Below, piece by piece: positions 35,267-58,555 of a DNA stretch of 64,000 nt (position 1 is its first letter; every line of letters begins with the position of its first letter). The notes beneath the pieces were generated by a model. The model worked only from the letters and a program-made list of their open reading frames with translations, had not been told where the DNA came from and did no database searches. The position numbers and the translations under genes were made by a program. The DNA is taken from positions 64,001 to 128,000 of IMG/VR virus record IMGVR_UViG_3300012039_000002; one strand, written 5' to 3'. The DNA comes from a virus.

Positions 35267-37573
35267 ATGCGGCGAATATTCGATTTATTTAAAGACCTTC
35301 GAGATGTTCCATCTCCAGATGAGGGCAAGTTTTTAGTCTGGGATAATAATGAAACATTGAGAAACGCCTCTGGTACAGGCACTCCCGGTGAATCGGGTTA
35401 CTCTGGTTTTTCAGGCGCAAATCCCGGCCCTACAGGCTCTGCAGGCGCCTCTGGCTATTCTGGCGCCACAGGTTCTGGCTACAGTGGTTATTCAGGCCGA
35501 TCGGGCACTTCTGGTAAATCAGGCTTCTCTGGTTCCGGCACTTCTGGTTACTCTGGAATATCAGGCAGAGGTACAAGCGGGTATTCGGGTATAAGTGGTT
35601 CTGGTGTTTCTGGTTATTCTGGTCTTGCGGGATTATTTGCGGGCTCCGGCTATTCAGGTGAAACTGGCAGTTCAGGCTATAGTGGCTATTCAGGCTACTC
35701 CGGTTACAGTGGTTCTGGTGTAAGCGGCTATTCTGGCGATTCTGGCTATTCTGGCATAGGGACTTCTGGCTATTCTGGCATAGGGACTTCTGGCTATTCT
35801 GGCGATTCTGGCTATTCTGGCATAGGGACTTCTGGCTATTCTGGCGATTCTGGATATTCTGGTTCCGGTGTTTCCGGCTATTCGGGATTCAGTGGTTCAG
35901 GCACTTCGGGCTATTCCGGCGAACAAGGTAGCTCAGGCTACTCTGGAGATTCGGGCTATTCCGGCGAACAAGGTAGCTCAGGATATTCGGGTTCTGGAGT
36001 AAGTGGCTATTCGGGCGTCTCAGGTTATTCCGGCTACTCTGGCTCTGGCGTATCTGGCTACTCGGGTTTTTCTGGCTCTGGTGTATCTGGCTACTCGGGT
36101 TTTTCTGGTTCGGGTGTTTCCGGTTATTCTGGCTTCAGCGGTTATTCTGGCTTCAGCGGTTATTCTGGAATTGGTACTTCGGGTTATTCTGGAATATCAG
36201 GACATTCAGGCTCAGGTGTTTCAGGTTATAGCGGCTATTCTGGCGTAAGCGGTTACTCTGGGTTTTCTGGCCGCTCTGGTGTAAGCGGATATTCAGGTTA
36301 TTCAGGTAGGTCGGGCTATTCAGGCACTAATCCCGGTGTTCAGGGTGCTTCAGGTTATTCGGGTTATTCAGGCGGTTCTGGTATCGATGGTCTTCCTGGT
36401 GGAACATCTGGTTATTCTGGTTTTAGCGGATACTCAGGTGTTTCGGGTTATTCGGGTTCAGGTACTAGTGGTTATTCTGGCGAACAGGGCACTTCTGGTT
36501 ATTCTGGTTCGGACGCTTTAACGTCAGGCTATTCTGGTATTGATGGCACATCTGGTTATTCTGGCATCAATGGCGTTTCTGGCTATTCTGGCATCGATGG
36601 AGTGTCTGGCTATTCTGGTGTCGACGGTTCATCTGGTTATTCGGGTTTTGTGCCGGGTGGCTCAGGCTATTCTGGTATTTCCGGTTATTCAGGTGAATCT
36701 GGTGCTTCGGGCTACTCAGGTTTCGTTCCTGGCGGCTCAGGTTACTCTGGCATTTCTGGCTATTCAGGCATTGGAACTTCGGGTTATTCAGGTTCTGGCG
36801 TTTCTGGCTACTCTGGTTTTTCTGGATCCGGTGTATCAGGCTATTCAGGCTATTCAGGTAAGTCAGGTTACTCGGGTCATTCAGGTTTTGTGGGTGCGAC
36901 GGGAAATTCTGGCTATTCAGGCGCATCAGGTACTGATGCTCAATATTCTGGTTCATCTGGCTATTCTGGTTCATCTGGCTATTCTGGTTCCTCTGGAACG
37001 TCAGGTTATTCTGGTAAGTCGGGCTACTCAGGAAATTCTGGTTATTCTGGCTTTGGATATTCAGGCTATTCAGGAGCTACAGGCCTTCAAGGTTATTCAG
37101 GCGAAGCAACGTCAGGCTATTCTGGCGGCCAGGGTAATCAAGGTCTTTCTGGCTATTCTGGTTCTGGTGTGTCGGGTTACAGTGGTTCAGGTGTAAGCGG
37201 CTATTCGGGCTCAGGCGTTTCTGGCTATTCAGGCTTCTCAGGCTATTCAGGCTTGAGCACATCTGGTTACTCAGGTGAATCAGGCTATAGTGGCGCATCA
37301 GGCTACAGTGGTTATTCAGGAGTTTCAGGTTATTCTGGCACGCCGCCTGCAGGACTGGGCACTTATTCTGGATGGTCTGGCGCTGGTTCAACCTTTGTTC
37401 AGAACTCCGGTGTAGCAGTAGGGACGCCACTGGTATTTTTGACTCCAACAGATGCATCTGGAGCGACTTTATTTGGATACGTTTCTGGAATTGATGGAAC
37501 TTCAGGCTTTACAGCAGGCTACACTTCGCCAACAGGCGTTGTCACCTGGAACTACATAATCTTTACAAGCTAA
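35267..37573 (+). CDS. SGYSG-repeat fibre-like protein (768 aa)
   Basis: About 35-aa N-terminal anchor, about 650 aa of SGYSG/SGVSG repeats, and a small C-terminal domain. Confidence 0.8.
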   Translation: MRRIFDLFKDLRDVPSPDEGKFLVWDNNETLRNASGTGTPGESGYSGFSGANPGPTGSAGASGYSGATGSGYSGYSGRSGTSGKSGFSGSGTSGYSGISGRGTSGYSGISGSGVSGYSGLAGLFAGSGYSGETGSSGYSGYSGYSGYSGSGVSGYSGDSGYSGIGTSGYSGIGTSGYSGDSGYSGIGTSGYSGDSGYSGSGVSGYSGFSGSGTSGYSGEQGSSGYSGDSGYSGEQGSSGYSGSGVSGYSGVSGYSGYSGSGVSGYSGFSGSGVSGYSGFSGSGVSGYSGFSGYSGFSGYSGIGTSGYSGISGHSGSGVSGYSGYSGVSGYSGFSGRSGVSGYSGYSGRSGYSGTNPGVQGASGYSGYSGGSGIDGLPGGTSGYSGFSGYSGVSGYSGSGTSGYSGEQGTSGYSGSDALTSGYSGIDGTSGYSGINGVSGYSGIDGVSGYSGVDGSSGYSGFVPGGSGYSGISGYSGESGASGYSGFVPGGSGYSGISGYSGIGTSGYSGSGVSGYSGFSGSGVSGYSGYSGKSGYSGHSGFVGATGNSGYSGASGTDAQYSGSSGYSGSSGYSGSSGTSGYSGKSGYSGNSGYSGFGYSGYSGATGLQGYSGEATSGYSGGQGNQGLSGYSGSGVSGYSGSGVSGYSGSGVSGYSGFSGYSGLSTSGYSGESGYSGASGYSGYSGVSGYSGTPPAGLGTYSGWSGAGSTFVQNSGVAVGTPLVFLTPTDASGATLFGYVSGIDGTSGFTAGYTSPTGVVTWNYIIFTS

Positions 37574-37583
37574 CGGGAGATAA

Positions 37584-38396
37584 ATGATGGTTCTTTTTAT
37601 TAGATATACAAAAAGTTTGGGCGATTCAGCCATCTATACTCGCCTTAGAAATGCTACGGGTCAGTTCTGGGATTTCGTAGCAGCAGCTTGGGTGAATTCT
37701 CTCGTTGCGGATTGTAAAGTGTTTCTGCTTGAATCAGTTTTCCCAGATGATGATTCGCAGGACGCTCTTTACTCAGCTACAGCATCGATTCCCAATGGCG
37801 GCCCTTGGGTAGAAGAAACAGTCTTAGTGTCCTCAGGCAAAGTTATTGGATACGACAACACTGAGGGAGTAACCGATTCTGAAACTCTCAACTTAAAGCA
37901 ATCTTTATTGGCTTATGTTGGAGATGCTGATAACGTCTTCTCTATTGTGGCAGGTTCATTTACTGGTCTTATCAATTTCTACGCTTGTTCGCTTGCTGAT
38001 TTCTCCGCGAATATGGCTGATCCTGCTAACGCAACGCTTGTTTGCACATTGGGTCCTACTGGAGTGATGACTAATGTGGCTGACATAGCTACAAGTGGAG
38101 AAGTGCTATTCTTTAGACTCGAAACGTTCAATTGCCTTGCTGACTTGACTGTGAACATATACGCCGCAGCCATCTATGGAAACGTAAGAGTCTACGTCCC
38201 TCTTGGTGCACAGACGATTGCAACCGCTTACGTGTATTATCCTACGGCTGACGCTAGTCTTCTAGTCTACGAAGGCAGCAACCTTATTACGTTTAGTGAA
38301 AGCGCTTACGGAAAGTCTCTGGCTTTGATCCCAACGATTAATTGGGACATGATTTCACAGCCAGTAAATCTTACTACTACTCAGGTAATAGTGTAA
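37584..38396 (+). CDS. Structural protein, paralog of 57798
   Basis: N-terminal YTRLRNATGQFWDFVAAAWV...GGPWVEE is shared with 57798. Confidence 0.55.
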   Translation: MMVLFIRYTKSLGDSAIYTRLRNATGQFWDFVAAAWVNSLVADCKVFLLESVFPDDDSQDALYSATASIPNGGPWVEETVLVSSGKVIGYDNTEGVTDSETLNLKQSLLAYVGDADNVFSIVAGSFTGLINFYACSLADFSANMADPANATLVCTLGPTGVMTNVADIATSGEVLFFRLETFNCLADLTVNIYAAAIYGNVRVYVPLGAQTIATAYVYYPTADASLLVYEGSNLITFSESAYGKSLALIPTINWDMISQPVNLTTTQVIV

Positions 38397-38408
38397 CGGA
38401 GATAAACA

Positions 38409-38747
38409 ATGGCGTTTGAATACGAAAAGCAGCCCTGGGAAGAGGAAATAGTTGGCGTTGATTTTTCTCGGCGTGTGCCTGCTACAACTTCTATCACTGC
38501 ATACACAGTTGCAGTTGAAGAAACCATTTCTCCGCCGGGCTTTCAGGCTGGCAGCTATTCTCCCCACTTGAGTTGCGGCACACCAGCGCTGTCTGGTCCT
38601 GGCGTTGATCCTGCTAGACATAAAATACTCTCTTCGCTGCTTACGGGCGGCGTCAACAACTTCCAATACCGTGTAACATTTAGAGTGACCTTGTTAGATG
38701 GTCAGAAAAAGGAAGAGGATGTTCTCGTAACGGTTAAGGAGACTTAA
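38409..38747 (+). CDS. Fibre-tail adaptor-like small protein
   Basis: KQPWEEEIVGVDF...LTGG...YRVTFRVTLLDGQKKE pattern. Confidence 0.6.
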   Translation: MAFEYEKQPWEEEIVGVDFSRRVPATTSITAYTVAVEETISPPGFQAGSYSPHLSCGTPALSGPGVDPARHKILSSLLTGGVNNFQYRVTFRVTLLDGQKKEEDVLVTVKET

Positions 38748-38748
38748 T

Positions 38749-41700
38749 TTGGCCATAGTTTTTCAAAACAAGAACTTTGCTAAGTCTCTCGTTGCGACCC
38801 TTCTTGGTTCTGGCGGTCTAAGCATATCTGTCACTGCTGGCACGGGAGTAAGGTTCCCTCAAACTGGCTTGTTTAAGCTAGTTATTTGGGGCGCTGCGTA
38901 TTCGAATCCTTCCGACGATCCCAACAGAGAAATAGTTCACGCTACATTATCAGCAGCGGATACTTTCACTATCGTTAGAGCTCAAGAAGACACAGTTGCA
39001 GGCACTTGGGTCGTTGGCTCTAAAGTCGCACACACAATTACTGCTGGAAAAATAAAAGAAATAGAAGATGAAATCTCTGTCGGCGGATCTGGATACTCAG
39101 GCTTTTCTGGCTATTCTGGTGTTGCTGGAGGCACTGGAGTTGCGGGCGTTTCTGGCTATTCTGGCTCAGGTGTAAGTGGCTACTCTGGCTCAGGCGTAAG
39201 TGGCTATTCTGGCTCAGGAATAAGCGGATATTCTGGCGAAGGTACTTCAGGTTATTCAGGCGCGGTCGGTGATATTGGTTTTTCTGGTTATTCTGGTTTT
39301 AGCGGTGCTCTTGGATTTCCAGGCGGCCCTGGCTTATCAGGTATGTCAGGCTATTCCGGCTTTGGAATAAGTGGCTACTCTGGCTCTGGAGTGTCTGGTT
39401 ACAGCGGAGATGCTGGCGTATCGGGCTATTCTGGCAGTGACGCTCAAACGTCAGGCTATTCTGGTGCAAGTGGCTATTCTGGCAGCGATGCTCAAACGTC
39501 GGGTTATTCTGGTGCAAGTGGCTATTCTGGACCAATGGGTCCTGGCGGCGGAGATTCTGGTTATTCTGGTTATTCAGGTAGCGATGCTCAAACGTCTGGT
39601 TATTCAGGTTTTTCTGGTTATTCTGGTGTCGGTTTTTCTGGCTCTGACGGTTCGTCAGGCTATTCAGGCTACTCTGGCGTCGGAACGTCTGGCTATTCTG
39701 GCGTAGGTTTTTCTGGAGCAGATGGTACGTCTGGTTACTCTGGCTCTGGAATTTCTGGTTATTCCGGCTCTGGTGTCTCCGGTTACTCTGGTTCTGGCGT
39801 CTCCGGCTACTCTGGCTCTGGAACTTCAGGCTATAGTGGAATAAGCGGCTACTCTGGCTCTGGTGTTTCTGGCTACAGTGGAGCATCCGGCTACTCTGGC
39901 TCAGGCGTCAGTGGCTACTCTGGCTCAGGCGTCAGTGGCTACTCTGGTTCTGGCGTATCAGGTTACTCTGGCTATTCAGGAATTTCAGGTTACTCCGGCT
40001 ACTCTGGTTATTCTGGAGTTTCAGGATATTCTGGCATTTCTGGCTATTCAGGTTATTCAGGATATAGCGGAACGACGGGTACAGGATTCGACTACTATCT
40101 AAGAGATATAGCGTCTGATGTTAGCGGATATGGTGAATTAACTAGATCGACACCGTCAGAAGCTCAAAATGACGACTCTGTTACTACAACAAGTGGTGCT
40201 CTGATCGAGGCATATGCAACTGAATCAGGCGATCCAAATGTCACGTCTATTTCTCCAGGAAAGTGGGCTTTCCACTTCTGGGGCTGGGTTAACAACAACG
40301 CGGGTTTACAGACATTTGTTTACGATGTTTATAAGAGAGACGCGTCGGGTGTCGAAACACTTCTCTTCACAAAGAGCAGTGCATCAATTGAATCTACCGC
40401 TTCTGGCACACCGACCGAACTTCAAGACGATTATTTTGATGGCAGTGGATTCACGATTGCTAATACAGATCGACTAGTTCTAAAAGTAAATGGCTTTACT
40501 GATACGGGCACTAGAACAATCCATCTACTCCATTCAGGCCCGACATTTGCGTCTCACTTTTCAACGCCACTCACAGTGGGTATCTCTGGCAGTTCAGGTT
40601 TTAGTGGTTATAGTGGAATTGGAACATCTGGTTACTCTGGAGTTTCAGGCTACAGTGGCATAAGCGGCTATTCTGGAATATCTGGCTATAGCGGTTATTC
40701 AGGCTCGGGTGTTAGTGGCTATTCTGGCTCTGGCGTAAGCGGCTATTCGGGCTCGGGTGTTTCTGGCTATTCCGGATATTCAGGTTCTGGAGTAAGCGGT
40801 TATTCTGGTTCCGGAGTTTCTGGTTATTCTGGAACATCTGGCTATAGTGGCTATTCTGGCTCTGGCGTTAGTGGCTATTCTGGTGTCGATGGCGTTTCTG
40901 GCTACTCTGGTTCTGGAACCTCTGGTTACTCTGGTTTAGCGCCAGAAACAATTACTTATCTGCCAACATGGGTTTCAGGTATTTCAGGCAGTTATTCAGG
41001 CGGAAATCTTGCTTCAATACAGACTGCTTATGACGCCGATGACTACATTGTCTGGGAAGTATCAGGCGTCCCTGGATTCGTAGTCAATGTCGATTACTCA
41101 GGTGTAGCGGCTTTCAATAAGGTCCAGCTTAGAACTGGCTATACGAACCCTAATCACACTGTCTTAGTAGAAGCATACAACAGTGGTGATACCACATGGG
41201 ATTCACTGGGTTCTTTCAGAGGATTTGCTGGTGGTTATGCAACATTCTCTTATGACGTCATTACAGATGTTCCATACATCCAAGCTGGAGGCTACGTACA
41301 GACGAGGTTTTACCATCAGTCGACGGGTAATCCTGCTGATGAGTTCTTGCTTGACTACATGACATTACAACAGGCTACCGCCGGCCCTCAGGGTCCTGAA
41401 GGTCAGTCGGGAGTATCCGGATATAGTGGAGTTTCAGGTTATTCTGGAACGTCGGGATACTCTGGTTATTCAGGCGATAGTGGTTATTCAGGACATAGTG
41501 GAAGCGGTATTTCTGGCTATTCTGGTTCTGGAACATCTGGTTATTCTGGTGTCTCAGGCTATTCTGGCTATTCTGGTTATTCGGGAATTTCAGGCTACAG
41601 TGGTGCTTCGGGCTACTCTGGTTATTCGGGAATTTCAGGTTACTCTGGATCTTCTGGTTATTCAGGCGTAAGTGGTGAAAATTATCCATGGCAAGGTGCT

Positions 41701-43266
41701 TGGGCTTCTGGAACTGCTTATGTGCCGAATGATACAGTCGGCTATCTAGGCGCCGGTTATATCTCAATTCAAAGCGGTTCGGGCCAAACCCCAGTTCCTA
41801 CGAGCACGGCATACTGGGATTTGCTTACTGCTTCAGGCTATTCAGGAATGTCGGGCTATTCTGGTTACTCTGGCTCTGGAGTTTCTGGTTATTCTGGAAT
41901 TGGCACTTCTGGCTATTCGGGCATTTCAGGCGCCTCTGGCTATTCTGGAATTTCTGGCTACTCCGGTTATTCAGGTTCTGGTGTAAGCGGCTATTCTGGC
42001 GTCGGAACATCTGGTTATTCAGGAGATTCTGGTTATTCAGGAATTACATATCCTTGGGAAGGCGCATGGGTTTCAGGCACGCTTTATCAAGTAAATGACA
42101 CTGTAAGTTATCTTGGTGCAGGTTTCATTTCTATTCAAAGCGGAGTAGGACAGACGCCTGATCCTGCAGGCACTGCTTATTGGGATCTTGTTTCTAGCTC
42201 AGGCTATTCAGGAATTTCAGGATATTCTGGCGTTTCTGGTTATTCAGGAGCTTCAGGTTATAGTGGTTACTCTGGCTCTGGCGTAAGTGGCTATTCTGGC
42301 TCAGGTGTAAGCGGCTATTCTGGCGTCGGAACATCTGGCTACTCTGGCTATTCTGGAGTATCTGGTTACTCTGGTTATTCAGGAATAAGTGGCTATAGTG
42401 GCTCAGGCGTATCGGGTTACTCTGGATATAGTGGCTATTCAGGTTCTGGTGTATCTGGCTATTCTGGCTCAGGTGTCTCTGGTTACAGCGGCTATTCAGG
42501 TTCTGGAATATCAGGTTACTCTGGTTCTGGAACATCTGGCTACTCTGGAGCCGGAACGTCTGGCTATTCTGGAGTAAGTGGCTATTCGGGTGTCTCTGGC
42601 TACTCTGGTTCAGGTGTAAGCGGTTACTCTGGTTCTGGTGTGTCGGGTTATAGTGGCTATTCTGGCGCAGGAACTTCAGGCTACTCTGGAGCTGGAACTT
42701 CCGGTTATTCTGGCTCTGGTGTTTCAGGTTACTCTGGCTATTCTGGCTCTGGCGTAAGCGGCTATTCTGGTGTTTCTGGTGCCGGAACGTCTGGCTATTC
42801 TGGTGGAACTGGTACCGATGGTACTTCTGGCTATTCTGGTGGAACTGGTACTGATGGTACGTCAGGTTACTCTGGATGGTCAGGCGCCGGAACGTCTGGC
42901 TACTCAGGATATTCTGGTCGTGCAGGTGTTAGAACTTACACATGGGTTATTGATACGCCTGTGGCAAGTAGTGCTCTTGCATCTGGAGTTCCTGGTCCGC
43001 GCCTTCGTGAAGCTCAGACCGCCACAAGAGTAGACGCATACACTCTAAACAACTCTGGATGGACGATCAACATTCAAGAGAGAAGTGCTATCGGTACTTC
43101 AGGTTCTAACCTCATTGCAAGCACTTACTTCCCAGCTGCTGGCGGTTCTGTGGCAAGCTTCTCAGATGCTGCTCTTGCTGCCGACAACTGGCTCTGGCTA
43201 CAGATAGTCGCTGTCTCTGGAACTCCAGGTCTTGGCGTTGTCACTCTAAGCACAACGGTACCATAA
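38749..43266 (+). CDS. Long SGYSG-repeat fibre protein (1505 aa) with inserted globular domains
   Basis: TTG start after AGGAG; repeat tracts alternate with six globular modules. Confidence 0.8.
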   Translation: MAIVFQNKNFAKSLVATLLGSGGLSISVTAGTGVRFPQTGLFKLVIWGAAYSNPSDDPNREIVHATLSAADTFTIVRAQEDTVAGTWVVGSKVAHTITAGKIKEIEDEISVGGSGYSGFSGYSGVAGGTGVAGVSGYSGSGVSGYSGSGVSGYSGSGISGYSGEGTSGYSGAVGDIGFSGYSGFSGALGFPGGPGLSGMSGYSGFGISGYSGSGVSGYSGDAGVSGYSGSDAQTSGYSGASGYSGSDAQTSGYSGASGYSGPMGPGGGDSGYSGYSGSDAQTSGYSGFSGYSGVGFSGSDGSSGYSGYSGVGTSGYSGVGFSGADGTSGYSGSGISGYSGSGVSGYSGSGVSGYSGSGTSGYSGISGYSGSGVSGYSGASGYSGSGVSGYSGSGVSGYSGSGVSGYSGYSGISGYSGYSGYSGVSGYSGISGYSGYSGYSGTTGTGFDYYLRDIASDVSGYGELTRSTPSEAQNDDSVTTTSGALIEAYATESGDPNVTSISPGKWAFHFWGWVNNNAGLQTFVYDVYKRDASGVETLLFTKSSASIESTASGTPTELQDDYFDGSGFTIANTDRLVLKVNGFTDTGTRTIHLLHSGPTFASHFSTPLTVGISGSSGFSGYSGIGTSGYSGVSGYSGISGYSGISGYSGYSGSGVSGYSGSGVSGYSGSGVSGYSGYSGSGVSGYSGSGVSGYSGTSGYSGYSGSGVSGYSGVDGVSGYSGSGTSGYSGLAPETITYLPTWVSGISGSYSGGNLASIQTAYDADDYIVWEVSGVPGFVVNVDYSGVAAFNKVQLRTGYTNPNHTVLVEAYNSGDTTWDSLGSFRGFAGGYATFSYDVITDVPYIQAGGYVQTRFYHQSTGNPADEFLLDYMTLQQATAGPQGPEGQSGVSGYSGVSGYSGTSGYSGYSGDSGYSGHSGSGISGYSGSGTSGYSGVSGYSGYSGYSGISGYSGASGYSGYSGISGYSGSSGYSGVSGENYPWQGAWASGTAYVPNDTVGYLGAGYISIQSGSGQTPVPTSTAYWDLLTASGYSGMSGYSGYSGSGVSGYSGIGTSGYSGISGASGYSGISGYSGYSGSGVSGYSGVGTSGYSGDSGYSGITYPWEGAWVSGTLYQVNDTVSYLGAGFISIQSGVGQTPDPAGTAYWDLVSSSGYSGISGYSGVSGYSGASGYSGYSGSGVSGYSGSGVSGYSGVGTSGYSGYSGVSGYSGYSGISGYSGSGVSGYSGYSGYSGSGVSGYSGSGVSGYSGYSGSGISGYSGSGTSGYSGAGTSGYSGVSGYSGVSGYSGSGVSGYSGSGVSGYSGYSGAGTSGYSGAGTSGYSGSGVSGYSGYSGSGVSGYSGVSGAGTSGYSGGTGTDGTSGYSGGTGTDGTSGYSGWSGAGTSGYSGYSGRAGVRTYTWVIDTPVASSALASGVPGPRLREAQTATRVDAYTLNNSGWTINIQERSAIGTSGSNLIASTYFPAAGGSVASFSDAALAADNWLWLQIVAVSGTPGLGVVTLSTTVP

Positions 43267-43267
43267 G

Positions 43268-44008: not shown

Positions 44009-44017
44009 GATAATGGA

Positions 44018-49360: not shown

Positions 49361-49361
49361 C

Positions 49362-50891
49362 ATGGGCACACGATCAGGGCAGAACATAGTCACTGACGGC
49401 TTGATTTTATGTCACGACGCTGGCAATTTCAAGAGCTTTAGAGGAGAACCGTCAACCAATCTTATTTCTGGAATCGCTTGCGGCTACCCAACAGCTTCAA
49501 ATACTTGGGGAACGTACGAGGTGTTTCAAAATCCGACAGACTTGTACAACGGAGGTTCGCCCTTTACTTTAACGATCGGAGGGGTGGCAGGAAATGAAGT
49601 TACAGTTACTGGCCATCCGTTTCTGACGTATGATGGCGTTCAGCCTCAGAGTACTGGAGGCGGTTTAACTTCAGGAGCGGTTTATTTTGTAAAAAAGACT
49701 GGAGCTAATACATTTACTCTTCATGTTTATGACGATACTGAAAATGGAAGCAAGGGTCTAGACGCTTATGGATATGCCGTTCACAACTCGGTCAACACAG
49801 ATACTAGAGTTTCGATAAACTCATCTGGCTTTCCTACGTCCTGGTGGGGCCCGCCTCACTTGCCGAACACCACGACAGTAAAGCAGATAATGAAGAGCGG
49901 TTTTAAGTATGAAGACAAGGTTCACGACTGCATGCGAATTCATTATTTTAGGGGCGATCGCAGTGAGGCGGGTGGAATGGCTTACGGGGGCGGCGTCGCG
50001 ATCCCGACTCTTGCCGCTAGTACAACGTACACTATTTCATTTTATTATAGAGGTGTAGACGAACAAGCTTCCGGAAAGTCCGTTCTGTTTCAGATTTACT
50101 GTTCAGATTCTACCAATGGCTACGCTAATCCAGGAAGTCCAGTAGTACAGTACTGGGATCCTGGCGATACTAATTGGAAACGATTTACTCATACATGGAC
50201 TCAGGCTGCCAACCAAGCAGGAGTTAGTTACTTTTACTGGATAGAAAATGTTGGCGGAGCAGGGACATTTGCCATTGACATCGCAGAGATACAGTTAGAA
50301 GTTATGGGTCACGTCACTGCGTATACATCGGGAACTCGTTCTGGTACTTTGGCTTCAGGTGGCGGAATGAAGGATCTTGCTAGCCTTCATCATCACGAGA
50401 TAGTTGGAAATCCAGTTTATAATTCTGATGTCGGCGGGAATTTAGTTTTAGATGGTTCTGACGACGGATGGACTCTGGAGTCTGCTCTTGCGGGATCTCC
50501 GTCTAGTGCTACGGTTGTTGCATTCTTCAAGTCTACTGATACTACTAATTTATGGGTTCAAGGAAATGACACAGGATTTTACGTCGGCGCTACAGATCCA
50601 AGTTCTAGCAACGTATTCTATCAGAATAATTGCGGCACTCCGACTTACTATATAGATACTGTGAGTAGAGCAAACCCTACAACTCCGGTAAATTATTTAG
50701 ACGGAAATTGGCACATGTGGGAGGCAAAGGGCGTCAATTTTTCAACTTGGACTAGGTTCCAGTGGTGGACTTATTACGCTGGTTATCAGCTTCTTGGTTC
50801 TGTTGCTCTTGTTATGGTTTACAATCGATCGCTTTCTGCATCTGAATCGGCGCAAAATTTTGCTGCTTTGAGAAATAGGTTTGGAATCTAA
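49362..50891 (+). CDS. LamG/concanavalin-like lectin-fold virion protein
   Basis: IVTDGLILCHDAGN N-terminus and VMVYNRSLSASESAQNFAALRNRFGI C-terminus. Confidence 0.75.
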   Translation: MGTRSGQNIVTDGLILCHDAGNFKSFRGEPSTNLISGIACGYPTASNTWGTYEVFQNPTDLYNGGSPFTLTIGGVAGNEVTVTGHPFLTYDGVQPQSTGGGLTSGAVYFVKKTGANTFTLHVYDDTENGSKGLDAYGYAVHNSVNTDTRVSINSSGFPTSWWGPPHLPNTTTVKQIMKSGFKYEDKVHDCMRIHYFRGDRSEAGGMAYGGGVAIPTLAASTTYTISFYYRGVDEQASGKSVLFQIYCSDSTNGYANPGSPVVQYWDPGDTNWKRFTHTWTQAANQAGVSYFYWIENVGGAGTFAIDIAEIQLEVMGHVTAYTSGTRSGTLASGGGMKDLASLHHHEIVGNPVYNSDVGGNLVLDGSDDGWTLESALAGSPSSATVVAFFKSTDTTNLWVQGNDTGFYVGATDPSSSNVFYQNNCGTPTYYIDTVSRANPTTPVNYLDGNWHMWEAKGVNFSTWTRFQWWTYYAGYQLLGSVALVMVYNRSLSASESAQNFAALRNRFGI

Positions 50892-50916
50892 TGGGAACAA
50901 GACACAGGTTTAAATA

Positions 50917-52239
50917 ATGACACTAATTTATTCACCCAAAATTGTTACAGACGGACTGATAATGTGCTTAGATCCGGCCAACGTTAAGTCTTCTTGTGGT
51001 CGCAGATCTTTGATAGATTGGGCTAGTTGGGTGGCGGGTACTGGAGATGCAACTTCTGGTGGCGGTACAGATTATTATAACGTAGCTGAAACCGCAGGAG
51101 AGAGCACTCGGGCACTTGGAACAGATCCATGGGGCAGATCGAGCATGCTCTGGAATTGTACAACTCAAGGAACGAACAATGCTGACGGCGGCTTTACGAC
51201 TAGCTATGTGCCTATAGCTATAGGTCAGACATATAGATTTTCTGTTTGGTTTAAGAGAACATCAGCAACGACGACTGGAACTGCTTATTTTGGTTTATCT
51301 TCTGATGACTCTGGCAACGTTGTGGATTTAGACGACGATGCAAACGAAGGAAATCCGTATTGGCATTACGGCAATTTAGCTACTTTTACACAAAACACAT
51401 GGTATTTATTTGTAGGTCATGCATATCTGTCAGATCATTCTAGTAGCATAAAACGGCACCCTGAAAGTGGTGTGTATACTATTGCCGGTGGAAGACTTTC
51501 CAACTGTTCAGGCAATATTGCCGATTGTAAGTGGACAGCGGGAGCAACTCAGGCGCTTCTTAGAAGCTTTATGTATTATTGCACTGATGCTGCTGACGCT
51601 GGGTCTTTATTTAATCCGAGAATCGATGTGTGTGACGGCTCGGAGCCCTCTATAGCAGAGCTCTTAAATGATGCAGGCTCTTCTTTGTTTGACATTACAG
51701 GAAATGGAAATCATGGCATTCTTGTTAAGAACCCTATATACGCTCCGACAAATAGCGGAATAATAACGCTAAACGGAACCGACCAAATTATAAGCGTCTC
51801 TAAAAATATGGCAGCTCTCAACTACACTGTTTTTGGAGCAGTAAGATATTCTGGCGCTACAAGAGGAAGAATATTGAGCGCTTTAGCTAATAACTGGTTG
51901 CTTGGAAATCATAGCACAACTTCAGAGAACTATTATGCAGAAGGATGGATTACTGACGGTTCTGGTCACGGCGCAAACGATACAAACTGGCGAACATTAG
52001 CAGGCACTGGTGACATTCTTGGAGATAATTATTCGCTTTATGTGAATGGTGTTGAGCAATCCGTCTTAACACCCACAGGCGGCACAGCAGGGCCTAATGG
52101 TTTGGCAATAGGTTCTTATGCTGGAGTGAGCGAATTTAGTACTGCTGACGTTGGGATAGTTTTGATGTACGATAGAACGCTAACTGCCAACGAGGTGTTG
52201 CAGAATCACATCGCCGTGAAAGGGAGGTATGGATTGTAA
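50917..52239 (+). CDS. LamG/concanavalin-like lectin-fold virion protein (paralog)
   Basis: IVTDGLIMCLDPAN...LYVNGV...MYDRTLTANEVLQN..KGRYGL. Confidence 0.75.
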   Translation: MTLIYSPKIVTDGLIMCLDPANVKSSCGRRSLIDWASWVAGTGDATSGGGTDYYNVAETAGESTRALGTDPWGRSSMLWNCTTQGTNNADGGFTTSYVPIAIGQTYRFSVWFKRTSATTTGTAYFGLSSDDSGNVVDLDDDANEGNPYWHYGNLATFTQNTWYLFVGHAYLSDHSSSIKRHPESGVYTIAGGRLSNCSGNIADCKWTAGATQALLRSFMYYCTDAADAGSLFNPRIDVCDGSEPSIAELLNDAGSSLFDITGNGNHGILVKNPIYAPTNSGIITLNGTDQIISVSKNMAALNYTVFGAVRYSGATRGRILSALANNWLLGNHSTTSENYYAEGWITDGSGHGANDTNWRTLAGTGDILGDNYSLYVNGVEQSVLTPTGGTAGPNGLAIGSYAGVSEFSTADVGIVLMYDRTLTANEVLQNHIAVKGRYGL

Positions 52240-52601
52240 TGACTACGTATAGATTATCTCCGAAAGGTTCATTTGCTTTTCTCATTGACGGTGGCGGTGC
52301 TACGATCACGACAGGTGTAAAGGGCGACATCGAAATACCTTTCGCTTGTACGATAATTGCTGCTAGAATGTTTGCGGACCAATCGGGCAGCATTACTGTG
52401 TCTATCTGGAAAGATACATACGCTAACTTCCCTCCAGTAGTGGGAGATTTGATAGATACATATGTCCTGACTACTACAACTAAATACGAAGAAACCGGCT
52501 TAGTTCTTTCTGTTGCTGCAGGCAGCATCATAAGATTCAATGTGGACTCTTGTACTACAATACAAAGATGCACAGTTTCGCTGACTGCGATGAAGGTGTA
52601 G
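52239..52601 (+). CDS. Small structural protein, paralog of the 30063 C-terminal domain
   Basis: FLIDGGGATITTGVKGDIEIPFACTI...ADQSGSITVSIWK. Confidence 0.6.
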   Translation: MTTYRLSPKGSFAFLIDGGGATITTGVKGDIEIPFACTIIAARMFADQSGSITVSIWKDTYANFPPVVGDLIDTYVLTTTTKYEETGLVLSVAAGSIIRFNVDSCTTIQRCTVSLTAMKV

Positions 52602-52602
52602 C

Positions 52603-53385
52603 ATGCCAAGTTCCGTAATACGACCTACAACACACGTCGACTCAACTCCTGCATGTAACAGTCCTACGCAAGCGTATGATGGCGGAACTGGTGCTGCTCC
52701 TGATACGTCGACGTATGCTTATCACCTCTCGCCGGGCGCTGGCGGGTATGCAACTTCGATTTTTAAAGTAAAAAACTGTGGAAGTCTTCCTGGCGGTTGC
52801 ATCGCTGCTTATATGAAAGCCAGAGTTTGGCCTGTACCGGCTACTAACGCATGGGTTTATTACTATTGGTATACTGATGGTGGAACTACTCCATTTAATA
52901 CTGATGATCTTTATGTTTCGGATCCAGGTGGTCCCGTTGTTCTTTCGCATGCCATATCGACTAGTGTCACGATGTCGAATCTTGTTTGGGAAAGCAGGCC
53001 AAACGACCCTTCTGGTGCTGGTCTTCAAGGATATTCTTTTGTTTGGGACTGTTGGGTTGAAGCATGGACTGCAATAAGTGCACCCGGAAGTCCAAGTTGC
53101 ACACCGGGATTAAGAAAGAATTCTCTTGGTTGGTCAGCTGTCTCTGGTGCAGATGATTACGTTATTCGTTGGACGAGTGATGGCTCTACGCCAACTAAAT
53201 CTAGCGCTGCTATTACTCCGGGAAATGTTACTTCGTACGAACACACTAGTTTGAGTCACATACTCTATAAGTATAAAATATCTGCAAGGGACGCCGGTGA
53301 CGCCGCTGGTGGAGATTTGTCGACAGAAGTTTCTGGAACGCCTGCTCTCCCTGGTAGCGCTATTAGTTCTATCATAGGGTTTTAA
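52603..53385 (+). CDS. FN3-domain-containing structural protein
   Basis: LGWSAVSGADDYVIRW...YEHTSL...YKYKISA. Confidence 0.6.
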   Translation: MPSSVIRPTTHVDSTPACNSPTQAYDGGTGAAPDTSTYAYHLSPGAGGYATSIFKVKNCGSLPGGCIAAYMKARVWPVPATNAWVYYYWYTDGGTTPFNTDDLYVSDPGGPVVLSHAISTSVTMSNLVWESRPNDPSGAGLQGYSFVWDCWVEAWTAISAPGSPSCTPGLRKNSLGWSAVSGADDYVIRWTSDGSTPTKSSAAITPGNVTSYEHTSLSHILYKYKISARDAGDAAGGDLSTEVSGTPALPGSAISSIIGF

Positions 53386-53394
53386 GGAGAAAAC

Positions 53395-53742
53395 ATGTTT
53401 ATAGTAAAGTTTGGAAGATACGCTGTTGTTTTTTATATCGGATGGAACAATTGGTCTTTTGGCGTGAAATCAGGCTTTCAGGGTCGGTCCTTTGGGCCTA
53501 TTATTTTTATTCGGCCCAGATGCATTGATGATAGAGGAATGTTGGAACACGAACTGGTTCACTCACGTCAGTTCTGGAATCCGAGAAAGTGGTTCATTGG
53601 AAAGCTCGCTAGAGAGGTTGAAGCATACCGAGAGCAGCTAAAATGGCATCCAGATAGAGCAGACATTTTTGCGACAATATTGTCGACGAGATATGGATTA
53701 AATATTACAAAAGAAGAAGCTTTAAAATTGCTTACAGCATAG
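53395..53742 (+). CDS. Small HExxH zinc metallopeptidase-like protein
   Basis: LEHELVHSRQ...REVEAY. Confidence 0.6.
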   Translation: MFIVKFGRYAVVFYIGWNNWSFGVKSGFQGRSFGPIIFIRPRCIDDRGMLEHELVHSRQFWNPRKWFIGKLAREVEAYREQLKWHPDRADIFATILSTRYGLNITKEEALKLLTA

Positions 53743-53743
53743 A

Positions 53744-53752
53744 TGATATAAT
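53744..53752 (+). promoter_or_regulatory. Extended -10 sigma70-type promoter (TGaTATAAT)
   Basis: Perfect TGnTATAAT 31 nt upstream of the radical SAM start; no -35 at canonical spacing. Confidence 0.5.
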
Positions 53753-53783
53753 AAAAGCATAAATAACGCAATAGGAGTCGCAT

Positions 53784-55001
53784 TTGAAAGTATTATTAAT
53801 TCATCCGCCGCACCCTAATTCTACTGATGACAGGCTTGATCCTCCAATGGGCCTTCTTTATATTGCATCTCATTTAGAGAAAAACTATGTAGACGTGGAT
53901 GTTTTAGATTTGTCGGGAAACAGCGATTGGGACGTTGCTATACCATTTGCTGACATTTATGGGATTACGTCTTATATCGCCACGCTGGGTATAACTGAAT
54001 CGATAGCAAAGCTGTGCAGATTAAAAAACGCAAAAGCTCAGGTAATTATCGGCGGAGCTCACGCATCTGTGCGTCCGCAAGACTTTCCGTATGCCGACAA
54101 GGTGGTTAGAGGCTATGGTGAAGCTCCCATGCTGGCTCTTTGTGGCAAACAAGCGACAGTGGACCTATTTGAGTTCCCTGCATTCAATAAAGTTAATTTA
54201 GGATCCTATTCAAGGCTAATAGACGGAAAGCCCTCGGTTCCCTTTTTAACATCTAGAGGCTGCCCATTCAAATGCAGCTTTTGTGGTCTGGCTTCTATGC
54301 ATAATATAAATGGTCGGTACCACATGATGAAGCCTGACGTGGCTGCAACGCAGCTATGCCGTATTAAGAATGAACTTGGCATTGATAGATTAAACTTCCA
54401 AGATGACATTTTTACGATGAATCGCCCTAGACTCTTTAAAATACTAGAGGCAGTAAAGGAGCTAGGATTTAGATTCTCTTGTATGGGTAGGGCAGGCTAC
54501 GACACTGAAGAGACTTACGAGAAACTAGCTGAGTCAGGATGTCAACAGATAGCATGGGGAATAGAAACAGGTTCGCAATACATGCTTGACCGTATGAGAA
54601 AAGAAATAAAAGTTCAAGACAACTATAACGTAATTAAATGGGCTAAGAAATATGGTATAGTATCTAGGGCTTTCTTTATGATAGGATTTCCCGGAGAGAC
54701 TAGAGAAACGATAGAGGAAACAAAACGTTTCATAGAAAAATCAGATCCTGACCAATACTTTGTTTCTAACTTTACGCCGTATCCTGGAACAGAAGTAGCT
54801 GAAAATCCAGAATGGTACGGAATTACTGGCATGTCTCATGATTATAGCAACTATTTTCAGGTTTCAAAAGACGGCCCTGGCGGATGTAACATAGATACAG
54901 AGTGGCTTTCTAGAGAGCAATTTAGAGAACTAGAACTAGAGTTTAGACAATGGATTAAGTCCCGAGGCATGAGAGGAGCTAAGCAAAAATATGAAGGTTA
55001 G
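53784..55001 (+). CDS. Cobalamin-binding radical SAM protein (class B methyltransferase-like)
   Basis: PPMGLLYIAS and IIGGAHAS in the B12 domain; SRGCPFKCSFC (CxxxCxxC); FQDDIF, GIETGS, FMIGFPGET and TPYPGT. Confidence 0.92.
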   Translation: MKVLLIHPPHPNSTDDRLDPPMGLLYIASHLEKNYVDVDVLDLSGNSDWDVAIPFADIYGITSYIATLGITESIAKLCRLKNAKAQVIIGGAHASVRPQDFPYADKVVRGYGEAPMLALCGKQATVDLFEFPAFNKVNLGSYSRLIDGKPSVPFLTSRGCPFKCSFCGLASMHNINGRYHMMKPDVAATQLCRIKNELGIDRLNFQDDIFTMNRPRLFKILEAVKELGFRFSCMGRAGYDTEETYEKLAESGCQQIAWGIETGSQYMLDRMRKEIKVQDNYNVIKWAKKYGIVSRAFFMIGFPGETRETIEETKRFIEKSDPDQYFVSNFTPYPGTEVAENPEWYGITGMSHDYSNYFQVSKDGPGGCNIDTEWLSREQFRELELEFRQWIKSRGMRGAKQKYEG

Positions 55002-57360
55002 TATAATAATTGCAACTTACAACCACTTGGAAGATTGTTTAAAGCCTTGCTGCGAGGCAATTAAGCAATACGTAAACTTAAACGAATGTGAAGTAATTAT
55101 TGCGGCTAATGGCTGTACAGATGGTACTCGTGAATACGTAGAAAGCTTGGGCGAATCCTTTAAGCTTGTTTGGTTTGAGAAGCCCGGTTTTGCCATTCCC
55201 GTTAATGCAGCGGCGCAAATAGCTCAGGGCGAGTACTTGTTGTTTCTAAACAACGATTGCTTCTTGCTTAAAGACAACGTCATCAATCTTATGTTGGCTG
55301 AGTTTGAGAAAGATTCTAAAGTCGGTGTTGTCGGCCCTGAATTTTGCTACAACGAATACGCTGATACAAATTATTTGAAGTTCTATTGCGCAATGATGCC
55401 CAAGACTCTCTTTGATGAGCTTGGACGATTCGACGTGCTCTTTGCTGATGGTACTTGTGAAGATGTTGATTTATGTATAAAGACAGAAAAGGCTGGCTAT
55501 AAGCTTGTTATGGTCACTTTGCCAATCTTTCACAAATTTGGAGTTACTGTAAGGGAGTTGAAAAACATAAGTCAGATTCTGACCAAAAATGCTCTCAGTC
55601 TTGGCAAAAGATATAATTCTAAATGGTATCAGAAATATTATAAGAAAATGTCGGAAAGACTTTGCGTATCTATTGTTATTGCGACGTATAATCACTTAGA
55701 GGACTGCTTAAAGCCTTGCATAGAATCAATACAGAAATACTGCAATCTTAATAACAAGGAAGTGATAGTCGTTGCTAACGGATGCACAGACGGAACTAGA
55801 GAATATGTTGAGAGTCTGGGAGCTCCGTTTAGACTTATTTGGTTTGACGAGGCAATCGGCGCTGCTAGGGCGTACAACGCAGGAATAAAAGAAGCTAAGT
55901 ACGAAAACATTCTGATTCTTAATAACGACGTCTTTTTCTTAGAACAAGAAAAAGACACTCTAATCAATATGCATCTAATACATTTCAACAATCCAAAGAT
56001 CGGTATTGTGGGTCCTATTAAGTCGGTTAGCGCTCCAATTAATCGAGAATTTATAATATTCTTTTGTGCAATGATTCGCAAAGAGGTCTTTGACAAGATT
56101 GGCTATCTTGATGAAATTTTCACAGTGGGTGCCGGCGAGGATACAGACTTCTGTTTGAGGGCTGAGGCTGCTGGTTATAAAATGGCAGTAGCAGGGGAGA
56201 TGACTGGTCACAATTCTGCTGAGGGTCAAATCACAGGCTCTGTCCCTATCTTTCATAAGGGCGAAGCGACTGTACATGATGAAAGTTTGGTCTCGGGCTG
56301 GAAGGAGATATTTCAGCGCAATGGTGAGATTCTTGCTGAAAGGTATCCCAAAGTTGAGGTTGTGGAGCGAAAAGAAATTCTCTGCGTTATTCCGACGAAA
56401 GGCAGATATTTTACAACTCTTCCTCTTGCAATTCAGTCTGTAATTTCGCAGACTGTAAAGCCCGACAGATTAATCGTGTACGATGATGGCGAACATAAAG
56501 ATTTGAGACAAAACTCTGTTTATCAGTATCTTTTTAGCACACTGGATTCTGCTGGTATAAAGTGGGAAGTTTCGTTCACAAGAGGCATAGGTCAGCATTT
56601 TGCGCATCAAGCTGCTAACACATCTGATTTTAAGTTCGTGTGGCGATTGGACGACGATACAGTTGCTCGCCCCGATGTTTTAGAGAAGCTGCTGTCTCAT
56701 ATGCAAGAAGGCATTGGCGCAGTTGCTGGTTCGGTGATTACGCCGGGACAGGAAGCTAAATCAGATTTTTATGCGACGCATCTTATTGATATAAATAGAA
56801 TGCCCAATTTGCAATGGGCTAGAGGTGCAGGCGTTTACGAAGTAGAACATCTCTATAGTTCGTTTCTGTATAGAACTAACATAGCTGATTATTGTTTGGA
56901 GCTTTCAAAGGTAGCTCATAGAGAAGAAACGATTTTTACTCATAGGCTGTTTCGTGCTGGCTATAAACTTTTAGTAGATAGATCAGCCGTAACTTATCAC
57001 TACCGCAATCCTGAAGGTGGTATTAGAACCGAAAAGGATCCCAAGCTTTGGGAACAGGACGAGGAAATATTTAGAACTGAATTGAGAAAATGGGGCTATA
57101 AGTTTATTGCTCTATCTCATGGCCTTGGCGATCATCTTATGTTTGTTAATATCGTCCCTGAACTTTTAAAGAGATGCAAGACGCTTGTTATGTTTTGCGT
57201 TTACGGCGACGTTTTTATGGGGCTGCCAAATGTTATTTGTTTGCCTTTGGGCGACGCAGCTGCTTTTGGTTGCAAAGAGACAAGCGTGTATGAATGGATG
57301 GTAAAGTACAATTGGAAAAGGAGCATGTTAGAGGCTTATGAAAAACTATATCTTAATTAG
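54991..57360 (+). CDS. Multidomain glycosyltransferase: three GT2 domains plus the N-terminal half of a GT9-like domain
   Basis: Two copies of SIxIATYN...NGCTDGT...LNND...ED.D.C; third domain VIPTKGR...YDDG...RLDDD...REET; C-terminal HGLGDHLMF. Confidence 0.9.
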   Translation: MKVSIIIATYNHLEDCLKPCCEAIKQYVNLNECEVIIAANGCTDGTREYVESLGESFKLVWFEKPGFAIPVNAAAQIAQGEYLLFLNNDCFLLKDNVINLMLAEFEKDSKVGVVGPEFCYNEYADTNYLKFYCAMMPKTLFDELGRFDVLFADGTCEDVDLCIKTEKAGYKLVMVTLPIFHKFGVTVRELKNISQILTKNALSLGKRYNSKWYQKYYKKMSERLCVSIVIATYNHLEDCLKPCIESIQKYCNLNNKEVIVVANGCTDGTREYVESLGAPFRLIWFDEAIGAARAYNAGIKEAKYENILILNNDVFFLEQEKDTLINMHLIHFNNPKIGIVGPIKSVSAPINREFIIFFCAMIRKEVFDKIGYLDEIFTVGAGEDTDFCLRAEAAGYKMAVAGEMTGHNSAEGQITGSVPIFHKGEATVHDESLVSGWKEIFQRNGEILAERYPKVEVVERKEILCVIPTKGRYFTTLPLAIQSVISQTVKPDRLIVYDDGEHKDLRQNSVYQYLFSTLDSAGIKWEVSFTRGIGQHFAHQAANTSDFKFVWRLDDDTVARPDVLEKLLSHMQEGIGAVAGSVITPGQEAKSDFYATHLIDINRMPNLQWARGAGVYEVEHLYSSFLYRTNIADYCLELSKVAHREETIFTHRLFRAGYKLLVDRSAVTYHYRNPEGGIRTEKDPKLWEQDEEIFRTELRKWGYKFIALSHGLGDHLMFVNIVPELLKRCKTLVMFCVYGDVFMGLPNVICLPLGDAAAFGCKETSVYEWMVKYNWKRSMLEAYEKLYLN

Positions 57361-57796
57361 CCCATGGTCAAAAGAGCTTAGGGACAAGTCATATAATCCT
57401 AAAAACTATCCATTTTGGGAAGACGTAATTGAGGTGCTTAAAGAAGAGTACGATATTGTTCAAATCGGGGTAGTTGGGGAAAAGCAGCTTGTAGATGATT
57501 TTAGGACTAATCTTCCGCTAAGAATAGTGGGTGAGCTTCTTTTGGATCCCGCTTGTTACATTTGGATCTCAGTTGACAATTTTCTTCCGCATTTAGCACA
57601 CGTGGTGGGAAAAGAGCCGGGCATTGTTCTTTGGGGACCTTCGGACCCCAACATCTTCGGATACAAACAAAACAAGAATTTGCTTAAAGCTAGAAAATAC
57701 TTGCGGCCAGATCAATTTGGCATATGGGATGGGCAGAAATACAATCCAGATGCTTTTGTGCCTGCTAGTAAAGTCATAGAAGCAGTAAGGGGTTAG
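57338..57796 (+). CDS. GT9 (heptosyltransferase-like) C-terminal domain protein
   Basis: NPKNYPFW, VQIG, ISVDNFLPHLA and IVLWGPSDPNIFGY. Confidence 0.8.
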   Translation: MKNYILISPWSKELRDKSYNPKNYPFWEDVIEVLKEEYDIVQIGVVGEKQLVDDFRTNLPLRIVGELLLDPACYIWISVDNFLPHLAHVVGKEPGIVLWGPSDPNIFGYKQNKNLLKARKYLRPDQFGIWDGQKYNPDAFVPASKVIEAVRG

Positions 57797-57797
57797 A

Positions 57798-58489: not shown

Positions 58490-58495
58490 TTTATA
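58486..58495 (+). promoter_or_regulatory. Candidate late promoter motif TTAATTTATA
   Basis: Same 10-mer, upstream of the RNA ligase cluster. Confidence 0.5.
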
Positions 58496-58555
58496 ACTAA
58501 ATTGACGAGGTCTGCCGCGGGACTAAAATGCCCTACGCTGAAAGAAAGATAACGA

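Follow-up and report, generated by a model that had tools for sequence, protein, structure and literature searches.

Serine-glycine repeat fibres and a linked candidate glycosylation cassette in a contractile-tailed environmental phage

The DNA analyzed here, referred to as the window, is a stretch of 64,000 nucleotides (nt) comprising bases 64001-128000 of the virus record IMGVR_UViG_3300012039_000002, which is 163,355 bp long, has direct terminal repeats and carries a completeness rating of 100%. The window contains three giant fibre genes built largely of serine-glycine (SG) repeats and, downstream of them, a cassette encoding a radical S-adenosylmethionine (SAM) enzyme with a cobalamin (B12)-binding domain, a glycosyltransferase (GT) with three GT2 domains, and a small GT9-like protein, here called X. 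On balance, it appears rather probable that these genes form a cytoplasmic module which glycosylates the phage's own collagen-like fibres, a reading that is well supported at the level of genomics. The gene content, the identities of the domains and the linkage of the repeats with the third GT2 domain (D3) and X in other phages are direct observations. The repeat proteins and their numbers of overlapping SGxSG motifs are as follows (aa, amino acids):

8066-8299, plus strand: mini collagen-like protein, 77 aa, 6 SGxSG, just behind the major head protein gene; weak PHROG tail-fibre hit
8328-8564, plus strand: mini collagen-like protein, 78 aa, 7 SGxSG, for the most part in regular G-X-S/T triplets; hits to collagen-like and tail-fibre PHROGs
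35267-37573, plus strand: fibre 1, 768 aa, 86% repeat, 141 SGxSG, small globular C-terminus
38749-43266, plus strand: fibre 2, 1505 aa, seven repeat blocks, 198 SGxSG, globular insert domains between the blocks
44285-49360, plus strand: fibre 3, 1691 aa, eight repeat blocks, 225 SGxSG, insert domains common to fibre 2

The cassette comprises the following genes and domains:

53784-55001, plus strand: radical SAM enzyme, 405 aa, with B12-binding domain (aa 20-119), radical SAM core (aa 156-317) and CX3CX2C motif
54991-55650, plus strand: GT2 domain 1 (Pfam), aa 1-220 of the 789-aa transferase, type GT2a
55651-56370, plus strand: GT2 domain 2 (Pfam), aa 221-460, type GT2a
56371-57090, plus strand: GT2 domain 3 (D3), aa 461-700, the domain conserved beside SG-repeat genes in other phages
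57091-57360, plus strand: C-terminal tail of D3 (aa 701-789), on which X is predicted to dock; its G-x-G-D-H loop (aa 711-715) is invariant
57338-57796, plus strand: X, 152 aa, free-standing C-terminal (nucleotide-sugar-binding) half of a GT9-like fold

The strongest evidence for a functional tie between repeats and enzymes came from other phages. For a forward scan, IMG/VR was searched with a degenerate DNA pattern for one 13-residue repeat stretch alone, which matched at least 120 contigs, and linkage was counted, among the matches listed, at the loci with at least 1.5 kb downstream of the first repeat gene (n=81). A homologue of D3, in the form of a single-domain GT2 with 38-45% identity, was present in 59 of these 81 loci, and a homologue of X (41-53% identity) in 50, usually directly after D3; in all 64 loci having either gene, D3 or X shared the strand of the fibre. 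In many cases a gap of only 9-20 nt separates the fibre gene from the D3/X pair, which is also frequently placed between two repeat genes. Among the listed loci with almost no downstream flank, D3 was found in 0 of 27 and X in a single one, which indicates that most misses are truncations. Likewise, when eight flank-negative contigs were searched whole, an X or X-like gene was detected elsewhere in four of them, including the only one rated at least 90% complete, and the four contigs that were still negative are fragments of 11-65% completeness. In the opposite direction, a profile of X recovered at least 589 viral contigs, and among the best 80 of these a same-strand SG-repeat open reading frame (ORF) was found in 27 of the 31 X loci with at least 6 kb upstream, or in 18 of 21 clusters at 80% identity. 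An earlier note on this DNA had proposed to test whether SGYSG-repeat genes co-occur with GT2, GT9 and B12 radical SAM genes. Co-occurrence holds for the GT2 and GT9-like genes, in both directions and over many lineages, and fails for the radical SAM gene, which was present in 0 of the at least 120 repeat-selected loci listed and, judged from its distribution, is limited to a sub-lineage.

Among 50,697 cultured-phage records a close homologue of D3 occurred in one phage only, Methylophilaceae phage P19250A, in which a 1201-aa SG-repeat protein (179 SGxSG), a methyltransferase-like ORF, D3 and X follow each other in this order. The repeat protein, gene 0023 (KX815270; L126:4753-8358), is annotated as 'tail length tape-measure protein', yet it lies behind the gene for host-specificity protein J and is probably a misannotated fibre. 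The genomes of 185,579 prokaryote species yielded nine X loci, all on short contigs of metagenome-assembled genomes (MAGs) from scattered taxa; these contigs probably represent phage DNA that was binned with the MAGs. GT genes within or adjoining the structural module are found in the window, in P19250A and in most of the metagenomic loci.

The repeats themselves are restricted to few genes. In a six-frame count over the whole 163-kb genome, three or more SGxSG occurred in five ORFs only, the three fibres and the two mini-proteins, which together hold 577 overlapping SGxSG including 284 SGYSG (70, 100 and 104 in fibres 1 to 3, and 4 and 6 in the 77-aa and 78-aa proteins). This bears out the earlier claim that three fibres and two mini-proteins next to the capsid gene carry hundreds of such units. 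Outside the repeats SG dipeptides number 268 over the genome (GS 235, expected 215); only the 246-aa product of 43268-44008 stood out nominally (12 SG versus 4.0 expected, p 9e-4), a value that is not significant once corrected for 212 genes. Since Ser codons are mixed in the repeat DNA, the repeat is not a plain microsatellite. In the fibre repeats successive Gly residues are spaced by 3 in about 80% of cases and by 2 (G-S-G) in 14-18%, so that a unit of 8 residues is common; within the G-X-Y triplets the Y positions are about 90% Ser (about 630 sites in the three fibres), the X positions are about 48% Tyr, and proline is scarce. All three fibres match Pfam Collagen (PF01391; E 2e-42, 2.5e-27 and 3e-42). 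Their longest unbroken G-X-Y runs comprise 14-21 triplets, and Gly at each third residue over long runs, as in collagen, was not found. A literature search on SGYSG returned nothing relevant.

Beyond the repeats, the N-terminal 35 or so residues of fibres 1 and 3 are alike, and two inserts of fibre 2 are weakly CBM5/12-like. A globular insert of about 150 aa is common to fibre 2 (aa 730-882) and fibre 3 (aa 279-435), as are Trp-rich modules of about 50 aa with weak CBM5/12 likeness, and both kinds of insert recur in unrelated SG-repeat contigs, e.g. L068 and L062. That the two mini-proteins decorate the head is a guess.

The 789-aa transferase (54991-57360) matches PF00535 above the gathering score in three stretches (E 1e-51), and a search of the complete genome recovered all three of these GT2 domains and zero outside this protein; its earlier description as a triple GT2 protein was correct. 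In D3 the motifs DD (aa 498-499; D44/D45 in the domain) and DDD (aa 554-556; D100-D102) are invariant in 21 homologues. A structural model of D3 (predicted local distance difference test, pLDDT, 79) gave only GT-A enzymes as top PDB matches, many of them at about equal E-values, including pp-GalNAc-T3, WrtF and TarP, and hence the fold search does not discriminate between acceptors; a profile of D3 found nothing among PDB sequences. In close relatives (L001-L005) the product of the GT gene has 791, about 1014 or 1255 aa, with three, four or five GT2 domains in tandem, which suggests a rapid gain and loss of modules in the GT assembly line; the one or two extra domains imply glycans of different length. 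In 92 loci, a fusion of GT2 and a class I SAM methyltransferase (about 406 aa) lies directly upstream of D3, and in other loci the methyltransferase is fused to D3 or free-standing. The GT2 half of the fusion is 39% identical to domain 2 and 32% identical to domain 1 of the window protein, which suggests that the lineage represented by the window joined its GT2 domains into one chain.

By its profile and its modelled fold, X is the C-terminal half of a GT9-type enzyme. The model (pLDDT 90) is a Rossmann domain whose best folds were the GT9 enzymes WaaF, TibC and WaaC (E 4e-4, query-based TM-score TMq 0.69), the X profile aligns to residues 180-295 of the WaaC C-domain (E 0.003), and 24 of 30 members of the X family touch PF01075 (best E 1.4e-6). 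This phage's own copy has zero Pfam hits, and the NCBIfam scan gave only a weak match to RfaC (E 0.002). X was not placed in BAHT (TIGR04414), its profile not reaching TibC among PDB sequences. The N-terminal acceptor-binding Rossmann domain of about 170 aa that GT9 enzymes carry on the same chain is missing from X, and the sole candidate for it is the D3 tail of about 90 aa, whose G-x-G-D-H loop recalls the start of a GT9 N-domain by eye only. The earlier designation of X as GT9-like stands at the level of fold and family, with the qualification that its own copy lacks a Pfam hit and that only half of the fold is present. The X gene overlaps the GT gene by 23 nt. A frameshift artefact splitting GT and X was considered and rejected, as X is separate in more than 50 independent loci (at least 50 others besides the window) and the same 23-nt overlap occurs in the relative L002.

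Prediction of a complex of D3 and X gave an interface score (interaction prediction score from aligned errors, ipSAE) of 0.66 compared to 0.00 for the best of three controls, a value attained by 58 of 80 solved complexes and by 2 of 110 mismatched pairs. At least 94% of contacts are the same between runs, the partner has a pLDDT of at least 92, and the interface, predicted between GT aa 712-780 and X residues 60-62, 81-89 and 105-109, falls on the invariant loop of the tail. The prediction supports, but does not show, binding of X by the D3 tail.

The radical SAM enzyme, whose gene overlaps the GT gene by 11 nt, matches PF02310 (E 4e-12) and PF04055 (E 1e-24), and the CX3CX2C motif is visible in its translation. 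It belongs to a family of proteins of about 420 aa that are found almost only in metagenomic and phage contigs. In five close relatives with radical SAM proteins of 79-92% identity the order radical SAM, GT, X, 153-aa protein and 76-aa protein is kept, and homologues with 51-61% identity sit in other phage clusters of GTs, methyltransferases and sugar enzymes, some of them with multi-GT2/methyltransferase proteins and X; one distant cluster additionally holds NeuB and an epimerase. The weak NCBIfam hits include cyclases and dehydratases. Judging from gene order, the radical SAM gene sits where the methyltransferase usually lies, and this position is the sole pointer to methylation. Given that no curated cut-off was passed and that AprD4 is the nearest solved relative, the enzyme likely tailors a sugar, with methylation as one option only. 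Of the sugar or backbone methylation suggested previously, a methylation step is indeed regular in the module, the GT2-methyltransferase fusion being the commonest neighbour, whereas the assignment of this step to the radical SAM enzyme is weakened by a nearest solved relative that is a dehydratase.

Several radical SAM genes were noted elsewhere. In contig L209 (1614-14023; binned as a Desulfobacterales MAG) a glycosylation cluster lies a few genes downstream of an S78 protease gene and an HK97-type capsid gene. Besides GT2, GT17 and a full-length GT9, this cluster encodes methyltransferases, DegT and two radical SAM proteins, one of them a B12 radical SAM homologue of 51% identity, and it has the appearance of a variant of the module that is tied to the capsid. 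In another large phage (L207:2424-7399), a B12 radical SAM cassette of 61% identity is preceded by genes for GT1, two more radical SAM proteins and a 4HBT thioesterase, which suggests a richer tailoring pathway. The genome studied here has two further radical SAM-type ORFs outside the window (G000:C1:26972-27331 and 8626-8991), one just at the Pfam cut-off and the other below it. A 30%-identical B12 radical SAM gene of Streptomyces phage SF3 was set aside as uninformative, as it sits among nucleotide-metabolism genes.

From these data we infer the acceptor, the order of the steps and the radical SAM chemistry as follows. The acceptors would be the Ser residues, about 630 in number, at the exposed Y position of the G-X-S triplets. 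D3 would be the core enzyme, its conserved tail binding X, and the two together, as a hybrid of GT-A and GT-B, would attach the initial sugar or sugars to the repeats from host nucleotide sugars, with subsequent extension of the glycan by the two GT2a domains that lie upstream. The B12-domain radical SAM enzyme would replace the SAM methyltransferase and could catalyze C-methylation of a sugar or, like AprD4, its deoxygenation. A search of the complete genome for a PF01370-type (NAD-dependent) sugar epimerase/dehydratase found none.

A number of points weigh against this interpretation. Linkage of neighbourhoods indicates a functional tie and not the identity of the acceptor, and in the window the cassette is 4.4 kb away from the last fibre gene, on the margin of the structural block. 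The repeat-selected set contains redundant loci, amounting to 73-88 clusters at 90% identity, and the 80 loci used for the reverse test are those nearest to this phage's X. In addition, four X/D3 loci (L154, L156, L164 and L166) have no SG-repeat gene within 10 kb and adjoin ribonucleotide reductase genes or arrays of Laminin_G_3 paralogues, so that the tie between the repeats and D3/X is strong but not absolute. With regard to the enzymes, the D3 tail alone gave only chance hits among PDB sequences, with no match to a GT9 N-domain, and the idea of a split GT-B enzyme therefore rests on the motif and the predicted interface, whose score may in part reflect the model's memory of GT-B folds. The NCBIfam hits of the radical SAM enzyme are far under every curated cut-off (e.g. 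PhpK, 143 bits versus 600), and its closest solved relative, AprD4 (PDB 6FD2, E 3e-16), is a sugar dehydratase and not a methylase. In the locus L166 (471-5600), in which SG repeats are not found nearby, seven tandem paralogous Gly/Ser/Thr-rich ORFs of 208-262 aa, one of them matched, to a Laminin_G_3 domain, lie upstream of a cassette of GT2, multi-methyltransferase, D3 and X genes and may be an alternative acceptor family.

In aquatic phages, GTs encoded next to fibre genes have been interpreted as modifiers of DNA or of host O-antigen (PMC7029224, PMC10202952), and the usual published reading of such genes would make the cassette a means to alter glycans of the host envelope (lipopolysaccharide (LPS) core or O-antigen, capsule, teichoic acid or S-layer), either to block superinfection or to aid release, with the proximity to fibres reflecting a host-recognition island. 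The nearest relatives of X are LPS heptosyltransferases and the fold of D3 resembles the phage-encoded wall-teichoic-acid transferase TarP, in agreement with such a role. However, the enzymes are linked in both directions to one type of repeat and not to fibres in general, the proteins of the 53784-58489 string have zero membrane segments, and the cassettes are devoid of a membrane protein, a flippase and a polyprenyl-phosphate transferase. Moreover, X is nearly absent from the prokaryote genomes, which argues that it is not a borrowed host LPS gene, and the cassette belongs to the late structural gene string of a large phage, with lysogeny genes not seen in the window; we therefore regard an action on the host envelope as unlikely. 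Less likely again is that the enzymes glycosylate other virion proteins, such as the capsid, the sheath or lectin-like fibre tips, and that the SG repeats are structural spacers. The glycans reported on the capsid and tail-tube C-termini of mycobacteriophages, the position of the L209 radical SAM/GT cluster near a capsid gene and the arrays of Laminin_G_3 paralogues at loci devoid of SG repeats would all fit this idea, but a scan with the repeat motif alone recovered D3/X in about 73% of the loci with enough flank, among the matches listed, and the pair is often wedged between two repeat genes.

Hypermodification of the phage DNA against restriction, by glycosylation or methylation of bases, seems very improbable. 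Phage GTs often act on DNA, domain 3 gave a weak hit to a TET-associated GT (E 0.006, under the cut-off), an RNA ligase gene lies shortly downstream after two small ORFs, and ribonucleotide reductase genes adjoin the pair in a few loci. In contrast, a thymidylate-synthase-type hydroxymethylase was not found in the complete genome, the pair is located in fibre modules at most loci, and strings of GT and methyltransferase domains suggest the assembly of an oligosaccharide. All three of these explanations fit the repeat-specific linkage in both directions less well than glycosylation of the fibres does. A narrower alternative concerns the radical SAM enzyme only, which might act on the fibre peptide by C-methylation, cross-linking or epimerisation at Tyr or Ser instead of on a sugar. 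Its weak NCBIfam likeness to ApyD and rSAM_ocin_1, which function in the maturation of ribosomal peptides, and the presence of Tyr at about half of the X positions are consistent with this possibility. It is nevertheless a rather improbable one, since the homologues of 51-61% identity are found amid DegT, NeuB, epimerase, GT and methyltransferase genes, two of them with no SG repeat in the vicinity, the closest solved relative has an aminoglycoside sugar as its substrate, and the gene occupies the slot of a methyltransferase that elsewhere is fused to GT2 domains.

Glycosylation of the fibres would have parallels in several known systems. To our knowledge, the demonstrated cases of phage virion glycosylation are limited to a few mycobacteriophages, whose GTs act on their own virion proteins before assembly; in work of 2023 attributed to Freeman and colleagues, the glycans were reportedly found by mass spectrometry on the C-termini of capsid and tail-tube proteins. 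As in these phages, soluble phage GTs are encoded here within or beside structural genes. However, the mycobacteriophage acceptors are short C-terminal extensions, whereas the candidate acceptors here are hundreds of G-X-S triplets in giant fibres, and the predicted enzymes of the present module (the putative D3/X hybrid, the GT2-methyltransferase fusions and the B12 radical SAM enzyme) differ from the mycobacteriophage GTs. BclA of the Bacillus anthracis exosporium is a collagen-like G-X-Y protein that is O-glycosylated along its helix with a methylated rare sugar, and it resembles the fibres in having a hydroxy amino acid at the Y position (Thr in BclA, Ser here). BclA is, however, a bacterial protein, rich in proline (GPT) and of unbroken register, while the viral repeats are proline-poor and Tyr-rich and shift register about every eight residues. 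In the serine-rich repeat adhesins of Gram-positive cocci a two-protein primary transferase, GtfA/GtfB, starts the glycan and GT-A enzymes extend it. The likeness here, a dedicated cluster beside a hugely repetitive Ser-rich substrate, is one of logic and not of homology, given that GtfA/B are GT4-type enzymes unrelated to those of the cassette and that the adhesins are coupled to secretion via SecA2/Y2.

A064R of Chlorovirus PBCV-1 is a multidomain GT-GT-methyltransferase that builds a capsid glycan. It shares with the proposed module the combination of GT domains and methyltransferase in a single viral polypeptide, a methylated glycan on a structural protein and the use of host precursors; PBCV-1 is, however, a eukaryotic virus and its glycan is N-linked to the capsid protein. 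With respect to X, the TibC-TibA and Aah-AIDA-I systems (PDB 4RB4, 4RAP) comprise a GT9-fold enzyme which modifies many Ser residues of a repetitive surface protein encoded beside it. Unlike TibC, X is encoded by a separate gene and corresponds to the C-terminal half only, its sequence profile reaches WaaC while the likeness to TibC is at the level of fold, and the acceptor part of TibA and AIDA-I is a beta-helix and not collagen-like. Finally, the radical SAM protein resembles class B (cobalamin-dependent) radical SAM enzymes as well as AprD4 in combining an N-terminal B12-binding-type domain with a CX3CX2C core. In the literature searched, GTs linked to collagen-like proteins were not described. 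Particular to the present case are the Tyr-rich SGYSG form of the repeat, the predicted split enzyme of D3 tail and X, a number of GT2 domains that varies, and the presence of a B12 radical SAM gene in the methyltransferase slot.

By its gene content the phage is a contractile-tailed phage (myophage), as indicated by upstream genes on the same strand for a head protease, a major head protein of SPO1 type, a tail sheath and baseplate proteins; the major head protein (gene 6479-7942) is about 40% identical to its Bacillus phage counterparts. Identical DNA is present in freshwater-sediment metagenomes, and a megablast search with 49362-60193 against cultured phages gave zero matches. Further genes around the fibres and the cassette are:

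37584-38396, plus strand: 270-aa protein, its N-terminal 90 aa paralogous to 57798-58259
38409-38747, plus strand: fibre-tail adaptor-like protein, 112 aa, Pfam Gp77, directly before fibre 2
43268-44008, plus strand: fibre-module protein, 246 aa, with the nominal SG dipeptide excess given above
49362-53742, plus strand: five genes between fibre 3 and the cassette, those starting at 49362, 50917 and 52239 with weak hits to virion structural families
57798-58259, plus strand: 153-aa protein, paralogue of 37584-38396, kept after X in the close relatives L001-L005
58259-58489, plus strand: 76-aa ORF, kept behind the 153-aa gene in close relatives; last before a 66-nt gap

The earlier note had described the fibre block as followed by an enzyme operon, itself flanked on both sides by structural-type genes, with the gene at 57798 a paralogue of that at 37584. 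The paralogy was confirmed over the first 90 aa (48% identity, E 2e-29), and neither paralogue matched Pfam, NCBIfam or PHROG, with Atlas scores under the useful range. The order of fibres and enzymes is also as described, although not their direct succession, five genes intervening, of which 50917-52239 encodes a Laminin_G_3 domain. The flanking by structural genes does not extend to the downstream side: beyond the two small ORFs 57798-58489 lies 58556-60193, a gene for a T4 Rnl1-like RNA ligase, and the far side of the cassette is therefore not structural. Within the 66-nt gap (58490-58555), a promoter-like site (TTGACG, 16 nt, TAAAAT) at 58502-58529 precedes the ligase gene, and the long transcription unit of the structural genes may come to its end here. 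In a promoter and terminator scan of 48000-61000, sites were fewer or no more numerous than in shuffled sequences, and the scan lends no support to a separate operon for the cassette. RNA-library contigs with 99-100% identity to parts of the radical SAM, GT, X, 153-aa and ligase genes occur in four metatranscriptomes; they were discounted as evidence of expression, since carry-over of DNA is possible and contigs cannot show transcripts.

Taken more broadly, aquatic phages of this kind, represented by at least 589 viral contigs, may form a widespread class. Their proline-free 'glyco-collagen' fibres would be O-glycosylated from end to end by a two-protein enzyme, in which a stub on a GT2 domain complements a free-standing GT9 half-domain; a variable number of GT2 domains would extend the glycan, and a SAM methyltransferase or, in the lineage of the window, a radical SAM enzyme yielding a C-methyl or deoxy sugar would tailor it. 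This generalization we consider possible, although we stop somewhat short of calling it probable. The analysis defines an enzyme pair that had not been annotated, the D3 tail and X, and a phage-borne family of B12-domain radical SAM proteins associated with sugar enzymes, and the cultured phage P19250A is available as a direct test subject. If the proposed function is correct, the radical SAM reaction would be the first such step in the glycosylation of virus particles. The repeat-specific linkage in both directions over hundreds of contigs points to self-glycosylated fibres being common in environmental phages, which, if true, would have a bearing on host recognition, on adhesion to particles and mucus, on resistance to proteases and grazers, and on the stability of the phages.

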